Source: Bacteroidota bacterium (GTDB lineage Bacteria; Bacteroidota; Ignavibacteria; Ignavibacteriales; SURF-24). From it: DNA of 64,000 nucleotides. Where the stretch lies: NCBI GenBank assembly GCA_050258935.1, contig JBLMZS010000013.1, positions 141,190 through 205,189 of the forward strand. The letters are read 5' to 3'. The number at the start of each line of letters is the position of its first letter. Within the stretch, counting starts at the first letter, position 1. A model generated the notes under the pieces. That model was not told the DNA's origin. It made no database searches and saw only the letters and a program-made list of their open reading frames with translations. Of this stretch, positions 1 to 6,707 are shown one piece after another. Both the position numbers and the translations under genes were made by a program.

Positions 1-2
1 GG

Positions 3-131
3 GGCAACAAAGATGAATACTGGCAGAAATATGACAGTCTGGCGGCTCGTTTTATAGAAAATTTCAGGCTGTATTCAAAGGACTGTCCCGATGATGTGCT
101 GGCAGCAGCTCCGGTAAGGATGCGCATTTGA
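3..131 (+). CDS. pckA: 3' end of an upstream gene (start lies outside the window). The C-terminus resembles ATP-dependent phosphoenolpyruvate carboxykinase.
   Basis: Frame 3 reads GNKDEYWQKYDSLAARFIENFRLYSKDCPDDVLAAAPVRMRI*, with the stop at 129-131. The Y..A..LA..F..NF......V.AA.P tail is how ATP-PEPCKs end. This is recognised from memory only. Confidence 0.5.
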   Translation, partial: GNKDEYWQKYDSLAARFIENFRLYSKDCPDDVLAAAPVRMRI

Positions 132-244
132 TAGAAAAATACATACAGTCTTCCAAAATTGAGATATTATTTCTATAGTTGTTGAAGAAAAGCAATTATA
201 TAAATATCTTTGTGACGTAAATTTTTATTTTCTAAGAGGAAGAC

Positions 245-2575
245 TTGATATCTGACCGAATAAACAGGGTAGGAATATCCCCTACCATGAAAATTGCCGC
301 GAAGGCGCTGGCAATGAAAGCTGAAGGAGTGGATATAATCGACTTCAGCGTTGGCGAGCCTGATCTGCCTACTCCCCCTAATATTAAGCAGGCAGCAATC
401 GAGGCAATAAACAACGACCTTACTAAATATACCGCCAACAGCGGCATGCCCTCCCTCAAAAAAGCAATTATAGAAAAACTGAAGACCGAAAATCACCTGG
501 AATATTTACCCGACGAAGTAATCGTATCGAACGGAGGCAAACAGGCCATATTCAATGTCATAATGGCGCTGATCGAAGAAGACGATGAAGTAATCATTCC
601 GGCACCCTACTACGTTTCATATCCGGAAATGATAAAGATTGCCGGCGGAAAGGAAGTGATAGTACAGACGAGGGAAAAAAACGGCTTCAGGCTTACACCG
701 GAACAGCTGGCCTCGGCGATTACTCCCAAAACAAAAGCCGTCATACTCAACAGTCCTTCTAATCCTACAGGCACCACATATACACGCCAGGAACTCGAAT
801 CTCTCGCACATATCATTGAGAACGAAGACATATTTGTTATCTCTGACGACATCTACGAGAAACTCATCTATGATGGAATTCCCTTTACCAGCATAGCTGA
901 AATAAGCGAAAAAATGAAGCATAAAACCATTGTGGTCAATGGCGTTTCGAAATCATATGCCATGACGGGATGGAGACTCGGTTATGCAGCCGGACCGCGC
1001 GAAATCATTGAGAGTGCAGCAAAGATACAGAGCCATAACACATCCAATGCTTCGACTATATCACAGTATGCAGCACTCGAAGCACTGACCGGCAACCAGG
1101 ACTTCCCTGCCATGATGCGCGACGAGTACCGCAAGCGGCGCGATCTCACTGTCGATAAACTCTCAGCCATAGAAGGCATCAGATGCTGCCGACCTTCAGG
1201 TGCTTTTTATGTGTTTGCCAATATTTCTTCGTTCTTCGGGAAGGAATTTCAGGGTACATTTATAAGAAACTCGTACGGTCTTGCACACTATCTGCTCGCT
1301 GAAGCTAAGGTAGCAGTTGTGCCGGGAGAGGCATTTGGAAACGACGACTACATCAGAATATCATACTCAACTTCTGAAACCAATATAATCAATGGAATCG
1401 AAAGGATCTCCGAAGCGCTGAAAAAGCTTCAGACGCCTCAGCACGTGAAAATATTCCAGATTTCCAATACTGCAACACGCATCCGGCGCCAGGTGGAACT
1501 CGAATCATCTATCGATAAGGAACAGCGCGATGCGCTCGTCGCCGAAGCAGAAGCATATCTGAAGAGCAGAAACCGATTCGAATGGGATGCTCTTATAAAC
1601 GGCGTGGTAGTAAGACTTAAAACCAATATTCCCCACCTGTATGATTTCTGGGTGGAGAACTGGTCGCCTGCACAACTGGGTAAAAATGAAAAACCCGGCG
1701 GTGTCATTTATGCCATTGACGGTGTGGTGGGCCGCGATGCCCTGGCATTCTACAACTCGCAAACCAAAACCGGACTGCTCTTCAATACCGATTTCTACGG
1801 TTCCTTAAGGAGTCTGGCCTTCGGACTGGTTACCGACTTCGGTGAAAAAGAAGGCGACTTCCACGCCATCAGAGGCATGTCCGCAATCTGCAGGGGGCGC
1901 GGATTCATAATGATTGGTCCCAAGGGCACAAAGAAAACTGAAATCTTCTACGGGCTTATCAACGATATCAGCGTAACAATGCATTCCAGTGATATCGTGT
2001 TTGTAAAATACGGAAAGACTCCGAAAGCGCTAAATCCGGAACGCAAACTGTATATCCCTACAAATGTCACGGCTGTAATTCCCAAATTCAACGAGCTGTT
2101 CGACTTAAGCAAGTGCGAGAATGTTGCTGTGCGCAGCACCGACTGCGAAGTGAAGGGATGCGTCAATAAGGATGACTGTCAGATGGATAAAGGTTTTCCA
2201 TATTGCTTCAAAGCGACTCAGGATTCCTATGCAATGCTAGATCCTTACTGGATAGGCGGCATGCACAGGCATGTAAAGAAAATGGACCTGAAAACAGTAT
2301 TCATACTGCAGAGCGAACATGATCAGCCGCTGATGAGAAAACTGGAGGCACAGGAAGCAATAGATATACTTGAAGCCGGTTTCCCTGCTGAAACAATATC
2401 TGCTCAGCCGACTCCGTTCTATAATAATCACCTGCTGTTCAATACACCGGAAAGATTTGAACTGCAGAAAAAATACTACAATCAGCTGTTTTCGAAAGCA
2501 GCAGCATATGCAGTAAACATTATGGATGCAAATGTTGATGAAGTGCGTAAGCAGATAGTCGAGTGCCTTAAATAA
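245..2575 (+). CDS. Class-I aspartate/aromatic aminotransferase fused to a C-terminal ~375-aa PEPCK/HprK-like P-loop domain
   Basis: TTG start at 245 follows an AGAGGAAG RBS. Residues 1-396 form a complete aminotransferase (GEPDLPTP, NSPSNPTG, PLP-Lys context NGVSKSYAMTGWRLGY). Residues ~400-776 form an extra domain with a degenerate Walker-A IGPKGTKKTE (nt 1916-1939) and a five-Cys patch. There is no stop or frameshift between the two halves. Confidence 0.85.
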   Translation: MISDRINRVGISPTMKIAAKALAMKAEGVDIIDFSVGEPDLPTPPNIKQAAIEAINNDLTKYTANSGMPSLKKAIIEKLKTENHLEYLPDEVIVSNGGKQAIFNVIMALIEEDDEVIIPAPYYVSYPEMIKIAGGKEVIVQTREKNGFRLTPEQLASAITPKTKAVILNSPSNPTGTTYTRQELESLAHIIENEDIFVISDDIYEKLIYDGIPFTSIAEISEKMKHKTIVVNGVSKSYAMTGWRLGYAAGPREIIESAAKIQSHNTSNASTISQYAALEALTGNQDFPAMMRDEYRKRRDLTVDKLSAIEGIRCCRPSGAFYVFANISSFFGKEFQGTFIRNSYGLAHYLLAEAKVAVVPGEAFGNDDYIRISYSTSETNIINGIERISEALKKLQTPQHVKIFQISNTATRIRRQVELESSIDKEQRDALVAEAEAYLKSRNRFEWDALINGVVVRLKTNIPHLYDFWVENWSPAQLGKNEKPGGVIYAIDGVVGRDALAFYNSQTKTGLLFNTDFYGSLRSLAFGLVTDFGEKEGDFHAIRGMSAICRGRGFIMIGPKGTKKTEIFYGLINDISVTMHSSDIVFVKYGKTPKALNPERKLYIPTNVTAVIPKFNELFDLSKCENVAVRSTDCEVKGCVNKDDCQMDKGFPYCFKATQDSYAMLDPYWIGGMHRHVKKMDLKTVFILQSEHDQPLMRKLEAQEAIDILEAGFPAETISAQPTPFYNNHLLFNTPERFELQKKYYNQLFSKAAAYAVNIMDANVDEVRKQIVECLK

Positions 2576-2868: not shown

Positions 2869-4683
2869 CTATCTACGAAATACACTCCTGACAACTTCAT
2901 CGCTGTAGTTCGAATACTGTTTCTGACTGTCGAATGCTCTTATTCGGTAGCGAGTCATTTCACGCTGACTGCCTGGAACAAAACTGTACTGTTTGTCTGT
3001 AAAGTAATTATTTTTTGTCGTGCCGATTACCCGCCAGCCACCTTTTGCCATGCGTGAAATCTCATAGAGAATAATATCCGGTTCCAGGTTCGCTTCCCAT
3101 ATAAGTTCCACGCTGCTGTCAGCAGGATTCTTTTCAGCTCTCAGATTCTGAGGGCGGGCAGGAGGCAGTGCGGCAGCAGATGAGGCAGTGGAGAAAATTC
3201 TGACAGTTATCTGAGTTCCGGTCTGTGAGGTCAGTGCAATAGAGATATTCGTCGGTCCGTTCTTCTTTGACGTACCGGGATTGCTCCAGGGTGTAATGTA
3301 ACGGTTATAGTCAATATTAAATGCGTCGGTTTCGTCCCCCATCACCTCGCGTGTCAGCTCCCATTTGCCTGTAGTTTCGTTATAATCATGCCATCTGTGC
3401 CAGTTGCGTCCCTCGTAATTAAGTATATCGGGCTCTCTGTCGCCCAGTCCGGAGTCCATATTCCGGTCCGTCTGCTGTCTTCTGATCAATGCCAGTTTTT
3501 TAGGCCACCCTTCAGGCATATCCATCCAGCCGTCAAATTGCCACTTCCACAGACCGTCAGCCTGCAGTGATTTGATCCTGGGCGGAAAATTTCTGCCGCC
3601 CTGTATATACCAGACATAAATCCCCCTGCCTTCTTTTGAATCCGGATCAAGTGCTCCCTGAACGCCTCCGCCCCTGATTATCTGGTCATACGGACTTATC
3701 CTCTGGTGGTTCTCAATGATCAGATATTCATCGGAAGATGCTGAACTAAACGGAATATTTATTCTGACAGCATCACCTTCAGTAACATAATCCTTCAGTG
3801 TCCTGGTAAATCCATTTTTATCTGCTACCGGAATGGAGATGTATCCCAGCTTTTCCCGTTCCCAAGCGCTCATAGCTTTTGTATCGCCGTAATAGTCGTA
3901 TGGATCTCCTGCCATGAGTCCGCCAAGACGTATATGGCCGCCCCCGAACAGATAATGTCCGTATTCATGAGCAATATGGATAGCCATATCAAAGCCTGAC
4001 TTTTGTATCCCGCGGTTATTTGATGTAATGCCGGAACCATGTACATTCAGCGCGTATCCGGATATTCTGATGCCGTCGTGAGTAATGAATTCAGATGACA
4101 ATCCCAGCTCCGCAATACCTCCGGCAAGGCCGAATGATCCCGGACCATTGCGGTAGATAATTATCATCATGTCAAAATAACCATCGCCTTTTCCCTCAGA
4201 GAACACGTGTCTCTTTCCGTCGAATGACCAGTTATCATACCGTTTAAAATCGATGCGTTTTTTATTCAGCGACTCCATCACCAGTTGATTAGCACTTCGG
4301 TAATGCATATCGCCCTCAAGTGTAATGACCTCAGGATAGATATCACCAATAAAATCAAATCGTCCAACGGACATTTTTCGGAAATAGTCAGATATGGTAA
4401 GGCTTCTGTAGCTGGAGGACACTTTGTCGTCGATCAGTTTACCGGCCCAGTCGGGCAGTGAACCTTTCTTCCAGTTGGATATGGACGACTGATCGTCCTT
4501 GAACTGAGCGAATACAATGAGTGCGCGCATATATTCACCCGGTGCGGTCTGAGATGGTTTGTATAGACCGCCTTTCTGCGCCTCAGAGTGCGCAGGTTCA
4601 GCAGAGTGCAGATAATGGATGGTTCTGAATGGCGGAGATAGCAGTGCAAGGTATATACAAAGACAAATCGCCCGAAGTCTCAT
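2869..4683 (-). CDS. Secreted zinc metalloprotease, M6/immune-inhibitor-A-like, with a C-terminal FN3-like module
   Basis: Has a signal peptide and an HExxH site (IAHEYGHYLFGGGH). Has the N-terminal RALIVFAQFKDD block typical of M6-type proteases. The C-terminal PPARPQNLRAEKNPADSSVELIWEANLEPDIILYEISR looks like FN3. Confidence 0.55.
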   Translation of the reverse strand: MRLRAICLCIYLALLSPPFRTIHYLHSAEPAHSEAQKGGLYKPSQTAPGEYMRALIVFAQFKDDQSSISNWKKGSLPDWAGKLIDDKVSSSYRSLTISDYFRKMSVGRFDFIGDIYPEVITLEGDMHYRSANQLVMESLNKKRIDFKRYDNWSFDGKRHVFSEGKGDGYFDMMIIIYRNGPGSFGLAGGIAELGLSSEFITHDGIRISGYALNVHGSGITSNNRGIQKSGFDMAIHIAHEYGHYLFGGGHIRLGGLMAGDPYDYYGDTKAMSAWEREKLGYISIPVADKNGFTRTLKDYVTEGDAVRINIPFSSASSDEYLIIENHQRISPYDQIIRGGGVQGALDPDSKEGRGIYVWYIQGGRNFPPRIKSLQADGLWKWQFDGWMDMPEGWPKKLALIRRQQTDRNMDSGLGDREPDILNYEGRNWHRWHDYNETTGKWELTREVMGDETDAFNIDYNRYITPWSNPGTSKKNGPTNISIALTSQTGTQITVRIFSTASSAAALPPARPQNLRAEKNPADSSVELIWEANLEPDIILYEISRMAKGGWRVIGTTKNNYFTDKQYSFVPGSQREMTRYRIRAFDSQKQYSNYSDEVVRSVFRR

Positions 4684-4883: not shown

Positions 4884-6707
4884 CTACAGGTTTTCTTTCT
4901 TCTTGTTTTTCCACTGCTTTATCCAGTTATAGCACGGAGTTGTATACGGTACAGCAGACAATGCACCGCCAAAACCTATATACCGGTATGTAAACATCTG
5001 AATATCGGTGGTCCTGACGTTTTTCAGCTCCGCATCGTCTATTTTCAGGTTGTATTTTTGGGCGAGTTCTGCTGTAAAGCCGTTATATTCTTTTTCCATT
5101 TTGCCGTTGATAAGTTTTGCTCTTATAGTCTCCTTTTCGTCCTCAAAATCACCACCAATTGATGAAAGAGTATCCTTCTTCGCGACGAGTTTAATTACGG
5201 CATATCCGTGCTCAGCCCTCATTGGACCGTAAATTTCTCCAGGTTTCATTTTTGCGGCAATATTCCCCACTTCTCCCAGTAAGGATACCGGAACCAGTCT
5301 GCCGGTATTTTCTGCCGGGTACCTGTTGTATTTTTTCTCCAGCTCCTCAAAACTGACCCCCTTATCCGTCTCTGAAAATATCTTTTCTACGACTTCAAGA
5401 CTGTCAGTTACAATCTGCATAACATGCACCTGCATTTCTGACACCGGAGAGGTTTTGATGTGAGTATAATACTCTCTGAGTTCTTCATCGCTAACAGATA
5501 CACCATGTGTTCTCTGGTTTCTGAGCAGCTGGGCCAGATAGCTGTCCTGCCATTGTTTCAGGTCTTTCCTGACTGCCGGCAGCTTATCCAGTCCTAATCT
5601 GTAGCCTTCACGTGCAAGTATATCATCCTCAATAAATCTGTCGGCTTTGTACTTCAGTGATGCAAATACCCTGCCTCTGTCTGCAACAGAAAATCCGTTC
5701 AGTATCAGGTAAGACAAAAATTCCCTGAATGTCAGTGGTTCAGGCTGCAGGTATGCAATAGGCATACTGAGTGTATCGGCCGAAATTGTTTTCTTTATGT
5801 CGAGTATATCATTTTCACTCAGATACAGATTTTTTTCTCCGCCCGCAGATTCCTTTGCCGAAAGATTTCTCAGTATCTTCTCTCCCAGGAGCTTGAACAG
5901 TTCCCTGTTGATCCTGACATTCTTACCTTCAAAGAGTTTGTCGAGGTATTTGATGCCGATTGCCTTAGCCCTTCTTTCCTTCAGGCGCATCTTTGCTTCG
6001 AGAGAACTCTTATGTGCCTCCTCCTTTCCAAAATTTGTTTTCGTCTTCTCCAGCATGTAGAAAACGAACCAGCCGTCTTTTGTCCCGACCGGCTGTGAAT
6101 ATGTACCCGGTTTCAGAGAAAAAATTATATTCTCCACTTTCTCATCGTCCATCTGTCCGTACCTGATGATATACATCGGAGCCTTACCGCTGCTGCTGTC
6201 TATGGTGATCAGAGAATCGATTTTCACTCCCCTGCGCAGATCAGACCACGCATTGCTGATTTTTGCCGAATCCCTGCTGCTCAGTATATACACTTTCAGC
6301 ACCCACTGGCTGCGCTGCTGTGCATTCCGGATATCATCTTTTGAAATGGATACCTTACTGCCGACCTCGCGGTCAAACAGCGCGTCTCTTATAAGCATTT
6401 TTTCCAGCGGTTTATAGTAAGACGTAAAACTCTCGTGACTGTCAAGTCCCATATTGCGCGCTTCCATTGCCCACAGTTTCTCGGATATCATGGACAACAG
6501 GAATTCTTTTTTCAGAGAATCCGGTCTGCCGGTAGTACCGGGGTGGGGTGAGAGTTCATAGCGGTTGACATATTCATCAGAGCTTATCGTTTCTTTTCCA
6601 AAATGTGCAAGGGCTTTTGATTTTTCCTGCGCTTCAGTTGACTGAGCCGTCATGGAAAGAATAAACAACACCGGGATGAATAAAGCTGAAAGATATTTTA
6701 TTTTCAT
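4884..6707 (-). CDS. Periplasmic SurA/PpiD-like chaperone with a parvulin-type peptidyl-prolyl isomerase segment
   Basis: Signal peptide (…LSMTAQS), then a long helical chaperone-like region, then a parvulin-like stretch LLGEVGNIAAKMKPGEIYGPMRAEHGYAVIKLV. Confidence 0.55.
   Translation of the reverse strand: MKIKYLSALFIPVLFILSMTAQSTEAQEKSKALAHFGKETISSDEYVNRYELSPHPGTTGRPDSLKKEFLLSMISEKLWAMEARNMGLDSHESFTSYYKPLEKMLIRDALFDREVGSKVSISKDDIRNAQQRSQWVLKVYILSSRDSAKISNAWSDLRRGVKIDSLITIDSSSGKAPMYIIRYGQMDDEKVENIIFSLKPGTYSQPVGTKDGWFVFYMLEKTKTNFGKEEAHKSSLEAKMRLKERRAKAIGIKYLDKLFEGKNVRINRELFKLLGEKILRNLSAKESAGGEKNLYLSENDILDIKKTISADTLSMPIAYLQPEPLTFREFLSYLILNGFSVADRGRVFASLKYKADRFIEDDILAREGYRLGLDKLPAVRKDLKQWQDSYLAQLLRNQRTHGVSVSDEELREYYTHIKTSPVSEMQVHVMQIVTDSLEVVEKIFSETDKGVSFEELEKKYNRYPAENTGRLVPVSLLGEVGNIAAKMKPGEIYGPMRAEHGYAVIKLVAKKDTLSSIGGDFEDEKETIRAKLINGKMEKEYNGFTAELAQKYNLKIDDAELKNVRTTDIQMFTYRYIGFGGALSAVPYTTPCYNWIKQWKNKKKENL

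Follow-up and report, generated by a model that had tools for sequence, protein, structure and literature searches.

Our analysis concerned a 64,000-nucleotide stretch of contig JBLMZS010000013.1 from a Bacteroidota bacterium of the order Ignavibacteriales (GenBank assembly GCA_050258935.1), the whole of which is referred to here as the window and numbered from its first letter. Near its start lies a gene in which an aspartate-type aminotransferase (AT) is continued, within the same reading frame, by a C-terminal domain (CTD) that proved to be a homolog of phosphoenolpyruvate carboxykinase (PEPCK). An original prediction, made from the letters alone, had described a single uninterrupted open reading frame (ORF) of 776 codons, with a complete class-I aminotransferase at residues 1 to 396 and a PEPCK/HprK-type P-loop domain from about residue 400 to residue 776. 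Our data confirmed the ORF (245..2575, plus strand) and, as described below, both domains. The strings quoted in that prediction were all recovered, namely, NGVSKSYAMTGWRLGY (containing K236), ISEALKKLQ (ending at residue 396), GPKGTKKT (residues 558 to 565), SSDIVFV, and CENVAV, as was a five-cysteine patch at residues 624, 634, 639, 645, and 654. The features of the locus are collected in Table 1.

Table 1. Features at and around the AT-CTD fusion gene, in window coordinates
Feature	Position (nt)	Strand	Basis
3' end of the canonical ATP-dependent PEPCK gene (pckA), 42 codons plus stop	3..131	+	Same sequence is the C terminus of the PF01293 gene on contig L001
114-nt intergenic spacer between pckA and the fusion gene	132..244	+	pckA stop at 129-131, fusion start at 245
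TAnnTTTG-like motif TATCTTTG, 33 nt upstream of the start codon	205-212	+	Direct reading of the sequence
Shine-Dalgarno-like AAGAGGA	234-240	+	Direct reading of the sequence
AT-CTD fusion ORF, 776 aa	245..2575	+	Identical protein in independent assemblies; same architecture in 80/80 genome loci
Class-Ib aspartate-type aminotransferase half, aa 1-396	245..1432	+	PF00155, PDB matches, invariant cofactor-binding residues
Pyridoxal phosphate lysine K236, within NGVSKSYAMTGWRLGY	950-952	+	Translation
CTD, aa 397-776, compact PEPCK-fold domain	1433..2572	+	AlphaFold2 model, Foldseek, hhalign
Linker and first CTD strand, aa 397-425; L406, N408, and T411 conserved	1433..1519	+	Mean identity 50%
Variant P-loop G558-P-K-G-T-K-K-T565, equivalent to PEPCK G248LSGTGKT255	1916..1939	+	Alignment of 73 orthologs
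H580-S-S-D583, aligned with PEPCK G-D268-D269 and the DD pair of HprK; of the two Asp residues the second remains	1982..1993	+	Alignments
E599-R600-K601 motif, E599 equivalent to PEPCK E282	2039..2047	+	E in 72/73, R in 73/73, K in 73/73
Family signature S622-K-C-E-N626, E625-N626 equivalent to PEPCK E311-N312	2108..2122	+	All five residues in 73/73
Cys patch C624, C634, C639, C645, C654, in two insertions relative to PEPCK	2114..2206	+	Conservation in 73 orthologs
Intrinsic-terminator-like hairpin (11 bp, 7 GC) with T-tract, 55 nt past the stop codon	2630..2668 (hairpin 2630-2658)	+	Terminator scan

The fusion ORF opens with a TTG codon. The corresponding NCBI record, MGE5362886.1, is 762 residues long and thus 14 codons shorter (window 245-286); the longer, TTG-initiated form is nevertheless probably the correct one, being supported both by the N termini of homologs (MISDRIKRIG...) and by alignments to solved aspartate aminotransferases (AspATs) that begin at residues 2 to 4. 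The gene starts 114 nt downstream of what had been read as the C terminus of a canonical ATP-dependent PEPCK, and this reading was borne out by an independent Logan assembly (contig L001), in which the identical 776-residue protein follows, at the same distance of 114 nt, a complete 550-residue PF01293 (PEPCK_ATP) gene. The product of that pckA gene scores 778 bits on the NCBIfam model NF006820, above its cut-off, and matches the PEPCK of Thermus thermophilus at an E value of 3e-187.

The AT half matches PF00155 over essentially its full length (E = 1.1e-76, profile positions 2 to 361 of 361), and its best matches in the PDB are AspAT B 6f35 (383 bits), followed by 6f77, 1j32, and the T. thermophilus enzyme 1bkg. 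We infer rather than assign its substrate specificity, since the best NCBIfam match, the aspartate transaminase model PRK06107, scores 469 bits, below the equivalog cut-off of 617. In orthologue alignments of 31 and 46 sequences, N173, D201, Y204, S235, K236, R244, and R371 are invariant; we take these to be the equivalents of AspAT N194, D222, Y225, S255, K258, R266, and R386, respectively. Also invariant among orthologs is K99, in a G-[GA]-K-Q motif that aligns with the GAKQ motif of 6f35, and this residue is presumably the Ib-type distal-carboxylate lysine (K109 in T. thermophilus). Because the residues binding pyridoxal phosphate (PLP) and carboxylate, together with K99, are invariant among orthologs, we expect the AT half to be catalytically active. 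The reaction of AspATs interconverts aspartate plus 2-oxoglutarate with oxaloacetate (OAA) plus glutamate. An identity as CobD/threonine-phosphate decarboxylase was considered for the AT half and rejected, as AspAT models score far higher.

The nature of the CTD became apparent from its fold and from profile-profile comparison. Searching Pfam and NCBIfam with residues 397 to 776 alone gave no match at an E value of ≤1, including to PF01293, TIGR00224, PF07475, and TIGR00679, and a single-sequence search of the PDB returned only a chance match to the P-loop of an ABC ATPase (E = 0.27). When a profile of 140 CTD-family sequences was aligned by hhalign with a small ATP-PEPCK alignment, in contrast, the two matched over 347 columns with a probability of 99.7% and an E value of 2.6e-24. 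The structure prediction agrees with this result: the AlphaFold2 model of the CTD, built with 45 homologs, has a predicted local distance difference test score (pLDDT) of 90.6 and a predicted TM score (pTM) of 0.89, and its top 35 Foldseek matches in the PDB are all ATP-PEPCKs (E of about 1e-15, TMq of 0.65 to 0.74; 13 to 17% identity over about 390 to 440 aligned columns), with GTP-PEPCKs next. A plain hidden Markov model (HMM) search of the PDB with the CTD-family profile gave weak matches to the P-loop of HPr kinase/phosphorylases (HprK/P; E = 0.016 to 0.06, about 60 to 75 residues). By hhalign, the CTD covers both PEPCK lobes, lacks the first ~65 and the last ~85 PEPCK residues, and carries two Cys-rich insertions. 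By fold and by profile-profile alignment, the CTD is a true homolog of PEPCK. In the full-length monomer model (pLDDT of 82, pTM of 0.50), both halves are well folded and their arrangement is not fixed; residues 400 to 404 of the linker have low pLDDT in this model, while residues 406 to 421 are ordered in the model of the CTD. As far as the prediction goes, this argues against a rigid intramolecular tunnel between the AT half and the CTD.

For the analysis of the active site, residues were mapped from E. coli PEPCK, in a numbering reconstructed from the alignment, onto 73 full-length orthologs of the fusion protein; the register near PEPCK Y207 to K213 is ambiguous by one residue, and the alignment is uncertain near the CTD insertions. 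The parallels to MHCSA, GLSGTGKT, GDDEH, and LLENV that had been drawn by eye are essentially those found by hhalign. In the P-loop, G558, P559, G561, T562, and K564 (PEPCK K254) each occur in 73/73 sequences and T or S at position 565 (T255) in 72/73. Compared with the kinase-1a pattern G-x-x-G-x-G-K-[ST], the window protein keeps the Lys and Thr, and the Gly preceding them is replaced. The third Walker A glycine, reported earlier to be lysine in the window protein, is replaced throughout the fused clade, where position 563 (PEPCK G253) is K in 53, R in 6, S in 5, and H in 3 sequences, whereas more distant relatives have G. Position 583 (D269) is D in 67 and E in 6 sequences, and the preceding position 582 (D268) is N in 55 and S in 5 sequences of the fused clade and D in 49 distant relatives. 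T606 (PEPCK T289) and N758 (PEPCK N440) are kept in CTD orthologs.

The residues that bind metal and substrate in PEPCK fared differently. Of the Mn2+ ligands K213, H232, and D269, the aspartate alone is kept (D583), the other two positions being occupied by S523 (Ser in 70/73) and R543 (Arg in 73/73), while an invariant arginine, R522, lies at or beside the position of K212. The segment with R65, which binds OAA and phosphoenolpyruvate (PEP) in PEPCK, is absent from the CTD, and the nearest column, 412, is mixed (R in 37, H in 14, V in 9, K in 7). The column of R333 holds Y or P depending on the alignment, which is uncertain near the insertions, and is not conserved. At the adenine-binding segment (R449, I450, I452, and T455) the CTD ends, and the aligned columns are variable. 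With respect to HprK, the histidine ahead of the P-loop is likewise R543 in all 73 sequences, and the DD pair reads N/S-D in the fused clade. It is very unlikely, as judged from these alignments, that the CTD is itself a PEPCK, because its Mn2+ and OAA ligands have been replaced. In the more distant relatives, most of which stand alone, position 522 is still Lys and position 543 still His, and a canonical G-K-[ST] loop and D-D are present. The AT-fused clade therefore represents an altered state derived from this one, several core catalytic positions having changed together and then become fixed.

Within the Cys patch, C624, C634, and C645 are present in 73/73 orthologs; position 639 is Cys in 61 and His in 12, and position 654 is Cys in 61 and Ser in 12, these same 12 sequences showing a compensating change of A657 to Cys. 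Such Cys/His and Cys-position swaps support the earlier suggestion that the patch could bind a metal, and we consider it a probable metal site. In both the CTD and the full-length models the pLDDT of the patch is lower, as expected for a site modeled without its metal.

The fusion is not confined to the window. A scan of 185,579 species genomes for the SKCEN motif identified ~300 with a relative, and 80 loci were fetched, all from metagenome-assembled genomes (MAGs): Calditrichaceae, Ignavibacteria, Bacteroidota-labeled MAGs, Aminicenantes/Acidobacteriota, Fischerbacteria, Desulfaltia, and some evidently mislabeled bins. The aminotransferase and the CTD form one ORF in 80/80 of these loci, of ~780 to 808 codons unless cut by a contig end. 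Searching with the full-length protein returned >100 clusters at 97 to 100% coverage, one of them labeled Caldithrix abyssi, under names no more specific than "PLP-dependent aminotransferase" or "aspartate aminotransferase"; the window protein belongs to a 90% cluster with 7 members from several assemblies, including MGE5362886.1 from a "Bacteroidota bacterium" MAG. Pairs of sequences among the 73 orthologs, which come from several phyla, are on average 68% identical in the AT half and 62% identical in the CTD, where 83 positions are conserved at ≥97%. This conservation indicates that the CTD is functional rather than decaying, under purifying selection nearly as strong as that on the AT half. 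The window copy is a deep branch, with 51 to 59% identity to most orthologs and 74% to its relative P0199, and it bears all the marks of the fusion family (a single ORF of ~780 residues, SKCEN, the GPxGTxKT loop, ERK, and the patch of 4 to 5 Cys). It departs from the family at 37 near-invariant positions; as these are spread evenly over the AT half (18) and the CTD (19), a CTD specifically decayed in the window copy was rejected.

On some long-read-style contigs (L002, L007, L008, and L009; European Nucleotide Archive ERZ250394xx/ERZ250395xx), the fusion gene and its PEPCK neighbor are broken by frameshifts, which yield misleading "stand-alone CTD" database entries such as P0022, P0036, and P0050. 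A split AT with a stand-alone CTD as the natural state in L002 was rejected for this reason.

The genes around the 80 loci were clustered to identify conserved neighbors, 4 loci having no downstream sequence to test. This provided the key context beyond the reach of the original prediction: the partner in most genomes is not canonical pckA but a divergent PEPCK clade. A conserved same-strand trio consists of a FloT-like flotillin gene, the fusion gene, and a gene for a divergent PEPCK of ~612 residues. In 66/80 loci the divergent PEPCK is no farther than 6 kb from the fusion gene, and in 60/80 it is directly the next same-strand gene. By lineage, the trio occurs in 9/11 loci of Calditrichia, 4/4 of Ignavibacteria, and 15/20 of Aminicenantes, as well as in Fischerbacteria and others, and it is also present in the Caldithrix abyssi-labeled assembly (L091) and in L007.

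The divergent PEPCK (for example, L018:4014-5852 and L091:10379-12220, with ~60 other loci) passes PF01293 at 79.6 bits and reaches 281 bits against a cut-off of 369 on its nearest NCBIfam model, NF006821 (PRK09344.1-3). By BLASTP it is 25% identical to canonical PckA over 157 residues, and by hhalign it matches canonical PEPCK at 100% (E = 7e-58). All 57 of the 57 sequences retain R60 (R65 in PEPCK), Y186, K191, K192, H211, K242, S243, D265, D266, E280, K286, T287, E309, N310, R331 (R333), and R481 (R449). Annotation of this clade may be incomplete in Aminicenantes, Calditrichia, and Ignavibacteria.

The upstream member of the trio, a Band_7/SPFH flotillin of ~468 residues, is by tblastn the same-strand upstream neighbor in 73/80 loci from several phyla (within the set L010-L089, for example L050:3382-4788; also L091:6567-7967). 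No HPr or phosphotransferase system genes were seen in the neighborhoods examined.

Neither the flotillin nor the divergent PEPCK was found in the 64-kb window, where canonical pckA is the immediate upstream neighbor instead. Canonical pckA lies within 6 kb in 0/80 of the other loci, and its adjacency is therefore specific to this lineage, yet it repeats the family-wide theme of a position beside a PEPCK. The upstream neighbor of P0199, the 74% relative, is unreadable from the 200 nt available, which are unlike the 3' end of pckA. On L001, from the same organism, a second class-I/II aminotransferase gene (L001:2-505), 37% identical at the protein level to the AT half of the fusion, has a stop codon overlapping the start of pckA, so that the gene order is AT, pckA, and AT::CTD.

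Concerning expression, the motif TATCTTTG upstream of the fusion gene resembles what we take to be the Bacteroidetes-type -7 promoter motif TAnnTTTG, and on the strength of this resemblance the gene may have its own promoter despite its position after pckA; a sigma-70 scan of the spacer found no promoter, and an Rfam scan of the window found no match. Beyond the terminator-like hairpin, a 604-residue ORF on the minus strand (2869-4683), with a signal-peptide-like N terminus, an HEYGH (HExxH) motif, and no Pfam match, possibly encodes a novel secreted metalloprotease. Next come a SurA/peptidyl-prolyl isomerase-like gene (4884-6707, minus strand) and then GH16/GH3 glycosidase genes.

Relatives of the CTD also occur outside the fusion with an aminotransferase. 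In the 899-residue protein P0069 (L092:8001-10700, also on L093 and L094), a degenerate CTD is fused directly to a divergent PEPCK. Its CTD part shows 29% identity (E = 9e-51), with P-loop and Cys patch lost, and its PEPCK part is 41% identical to the divergent PEPCK clade (E = 2e-132). No aminotransferase is present within the protein or nearby on the three contigs. The fusion is linked to a genuine PEPCK genomically and, through P0069, physically. The neighbors of P0069 include Roadblock/LC7, V4R, and TFIIE-like helix-turn-helix genes and a weak gelsolin match, which suggests an archaeal, possibly Asgard, origin of this neighborhood. Another CTD-family relative, P0133 (754 residues, on a 2.5-kb Logan contig), carries an intein (PF14890, residues 216 to 393) directly after the P-loop position. 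Inteins typically sit in essential ATPase motifs of active ATPases.

Whereas the architecture, homology, residue pattern, purifying selection, and gene linkage were observed, ligand binding by the CTD, its contact with PEPCK, channeling or regulation, and the direction of the pathway are inferred. We tentatively favor a model in which the CTD is a PEPCK-derived adaptor or regulatory domain that binds nucleotide or an anion and couples AspAT to PEPCK around oxaloacetate. In this scenario, the class-Ib AspAT, expected to be fully competent, is covalently tethered to a compact paralog of ATP-PEPCK, which would make no PEP itself and would instead act as an adaptor or sensor linking the aminotransferase to the true PEPCK of the neighboring gene. 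It could do so through physical pairing with this PEPCK, its paralog, or through responding to the nucleotide or anionic metabolites that both recognize. Labile OAA could then be handed between transamination and the interconversion of PEP and OAA, and the sequence Asp <-> OAA <-> PEP would be gluconeogenic from amino acids or anaplerotic toward aspartate. The CTD has retained the P-loop Lys-Thr, one Mg-type Asp, E-R-K, S-K-C-E-N, an invariant basic cluster, and the putative Cys/His metal site.

We favor this adaptor role because the linkage to the divergent PEPCK recurs in Calditrichia, Ignavibacteria, Aminicenantes, Fischerbacteria, and others and because P0069 is a Rosetta stone protein fusing the CTD to that same PEPCK. 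In the window, pckA lies upstream, and adjacency to the PEPCK family therefore persists though the paralog differs. The low pTM of the full-length model, which argues against a rigid tunnel between the halves, fits a tethered module working through partners. Of the two functions offered by the original prediction, a regulatory or pseudoenzyme domain derived from PEPCK thus fits better than the conversion of Asp via OAA to PEP by the fusion alone, for which the Mn2+/OAA ligands, R65, and the adenine segments are absent.

Several points weigh against an adaptor role. About 10 of the 76 testable loci have no PEPCK within 6 kb, and the adjacency to canonical pckA occurs in one lineage only. The synteny counts overstate the number of independent events, as the lineages are related and the sample is dominated by Aminicenantes. 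The equally conserved upstream flotillin is not explained by a model built on AspAT and PEPCK. The stand-alone relative P0043 (357 residues; L003-L005:8001-9074, Deltaproteobacteria-labeled), which has the SKCEN and ERK motifs and is flanked by small ORFs of unknown function and by a gene for an NfeD/S49 peptidase, lacks both AT and PEPCK within 8 kb. Finally, very strongly conserved polar residues in the cleft, together with the P-loop Lys and Thr, are more usual in an active enzyme than in a mere adaptor.

This last point leads to the principal alternative, namely, a CTD that is itself active as a phosphotransferase and whose chemistry is new; we regard this as unlikely while taking it seriously. 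It might be a metal-cluster "mini-PEPCK" acting on a substrate other than OAA/PEP, a user of pyrophosphate or phosphate like HprK/P, or a protein kinase/phosphorylase that modifies the neighboring PEPCK or the aminotransferase. Such activity would account for the invariance of the P-loop Lys/Thr, D583, and E599 and of the polar and basic cleft residues R522, R543, R588, R600, K601, K623, and K678, with C624 within SKCEN; stand-alone relatives have fully canonical kinase motifs, one of them with an intein right after the P-loop, and the closest matches at the sequence level near the P-loop are HPr kinase/phosphorylases. However, three core catalytic positions have been altered jointly in the fused clade (His to Arg, Walker Gly to variable Lys/Arg/Ser/His, and the first Asp to Asn/Ser), the CTD lacks the C-terminal segment with which PEPCK binds adenine, and the genomic context nominates no substrate beyond OAA and PEP.

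Alternatively, the CTD could be an allosteric sensor of ATP/ADP, PEP, or OAA for the aminotransferase only, the linkage to PEPCK reflecting coregulation of the pathway. While the retention of a phosphate-binding loop and basic cleft after loss of the catalytic metal ligands, the flexible tether, and the existence of genomes without an adjacent PEPCK would all be consistent with such a sensor, P0069 joins a CTD to PEPCK without any aminotransferase and so points to PEPCK as the primary partner of the CTD, making this explanation improbable.

Still less credible, and in our judgment very improbable, is a fusion that channels Asp to OAA to PEP on its own with the CTD as a working PEPCK. The PEPCK fold and the equivalents of the P-loop Lys/Thr, D269, E282, and E311/N312 are indeed kept, but the Mn2+ ligands K213 and H232 have become Ser and Arg, D268 is lost, the equivalents of R65 and R333 are not conserved, ~150 PEPCK residues are missing, neither PF01293 nor TIGR00224 matches, and a complete PEPCK encoded alongside would make a second one redundant. 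Lastly, an artifact, whether a chimera made in assembly or the product of a frameshift, for which one could cite the gene in pieces on the long-read contigs L002, L007, L008, and L009, is practically excluded, since those splits are frameshifts within an otherwise continuous frame, an intact ORF of ~780 residues is present at all 80 short-read MAG loci and in >100 database clusters, and the exact protein of the window recurs in independent assemblies.

OAA is scarce and chemically unstable, and how it is handed over between enzymes is a long-standing question. At this locus, an enzyme that forms OAA from aspartate is naturally fused to a PEPCK-type module, with a real PEPCK encoded close by, and fusion and adjacency together suggest a built-in link, through OAA, between amino acid breakdown and sugar synthesis. 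Hundreds of uncultured, protein-degrading bacteria carry the fusion, as does at least one assembly attributed to a cultured species, Caldithrix abyssi. For metabolic reconstructions of Aminicenantes, Calditrichia, and Ignavibacteria, both the CTD branch, which has no Pfam or NCBIfam model, and the divergent PEPCK, which scores below threshold, are of consequence. One may go further and consider, though this is doubtful, that AT-CTD and the divergent PEPCK, possibly with the flotillin, form a previously unrecognized metabolic module, widespread in the FCB group and Acidobacteriota, in which a PEPCK paralog turned metal-bearing adaptor or new-chemistry phosphotransferase ties aspartate transamination to the PEP/oxaloacetate node. 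If so, this module would be the first AspAT-PEPCK metabolon in prokaryotes to have arisen by gene fusion, and its core would be a new PEPCK/HprK branch.

The original prediction had not recognized the architecture as a described family, and we likewise found no Pfam or NCBIfam model and no describing paper for the AT-PEPCK-like architecture, the CTD family, or the conserved trio; the fusion thus appears undescribed, its sequences being abundant in public data under generic names. Among known systems, the AT half aligns end to end with class-Ib AspATs and aspartate-prephenate aminotransferases (1BKG, the Rhizobium enzymes AspAT A and B, 6F77/6F35, and the Arabidopsis enzyme PAT, 5WMH). The known class-Ib AspATs, in contrast to the fusion, stand alone at ~385 to 410 residues or carry a transit peptide, and none has a C-terminal PEPCK-like domain. 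With ATP-PEPCK (PckA; PF01293; E. coli 1AQ2, T. thermophilus 1J3B/2PC9), the CTD has in common the two-lobed fold and the equivalents of the P-loop K254/T255, D269, E282, T289, E311-N312, and N440. It differs in being ~150 residues shorter, without the R65-bearing N terminus and the adenine-binding C terminus, in the changes of K213 to S, H232 to R, D268 to N/S, and the Walker Gly to Lys, in not keeping R333, in its two added Cys-rich insertions, and in its fusion to an aminotransferase. The divergent PEPCK of ~612 residues belongs to the same superfamily, is linked to the CTD genomically, and in P0069 forms one protein with a CTD-like domain, whereas it has the full catalytic set and full length and is distant from the CTD by hhalign (52%, E = 1e-4).

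In the P-loop region, the best sequence likeness is to HprK/P (PF07475, TIGR00679), HprK-related kinases A and B, and ScmC (TIGR04352, TIGR04355, and TIGR04249), which have in common with the CTD the pattern h-x-x-[HR]-G-x-x-x-x-x-x-G-x-G-x-x-x-x-G-x-x-G-x-x-K-[ST]-E, followed by x-D. The stand-alone CTD relatives match the models of this group weakly (E = 1e-8 to 1e-3). Unlike the HprK group, the CTD has a PEPCK-type N-terminal lobe, Arg in place of His, and one Asp of the DD pair, and its scores lie far under the family cut-offs. Judged by HMM thresholds, by the Mn2+/OAA ligands, and by the His and DD pair, the CTD thus appears to be a member of neither the PEPCK nor the HprK family as presently modeled, and we regard it as a new PEPCK/HprK superfamily branch, set in a fusion and operon context that is itself new and conserved.

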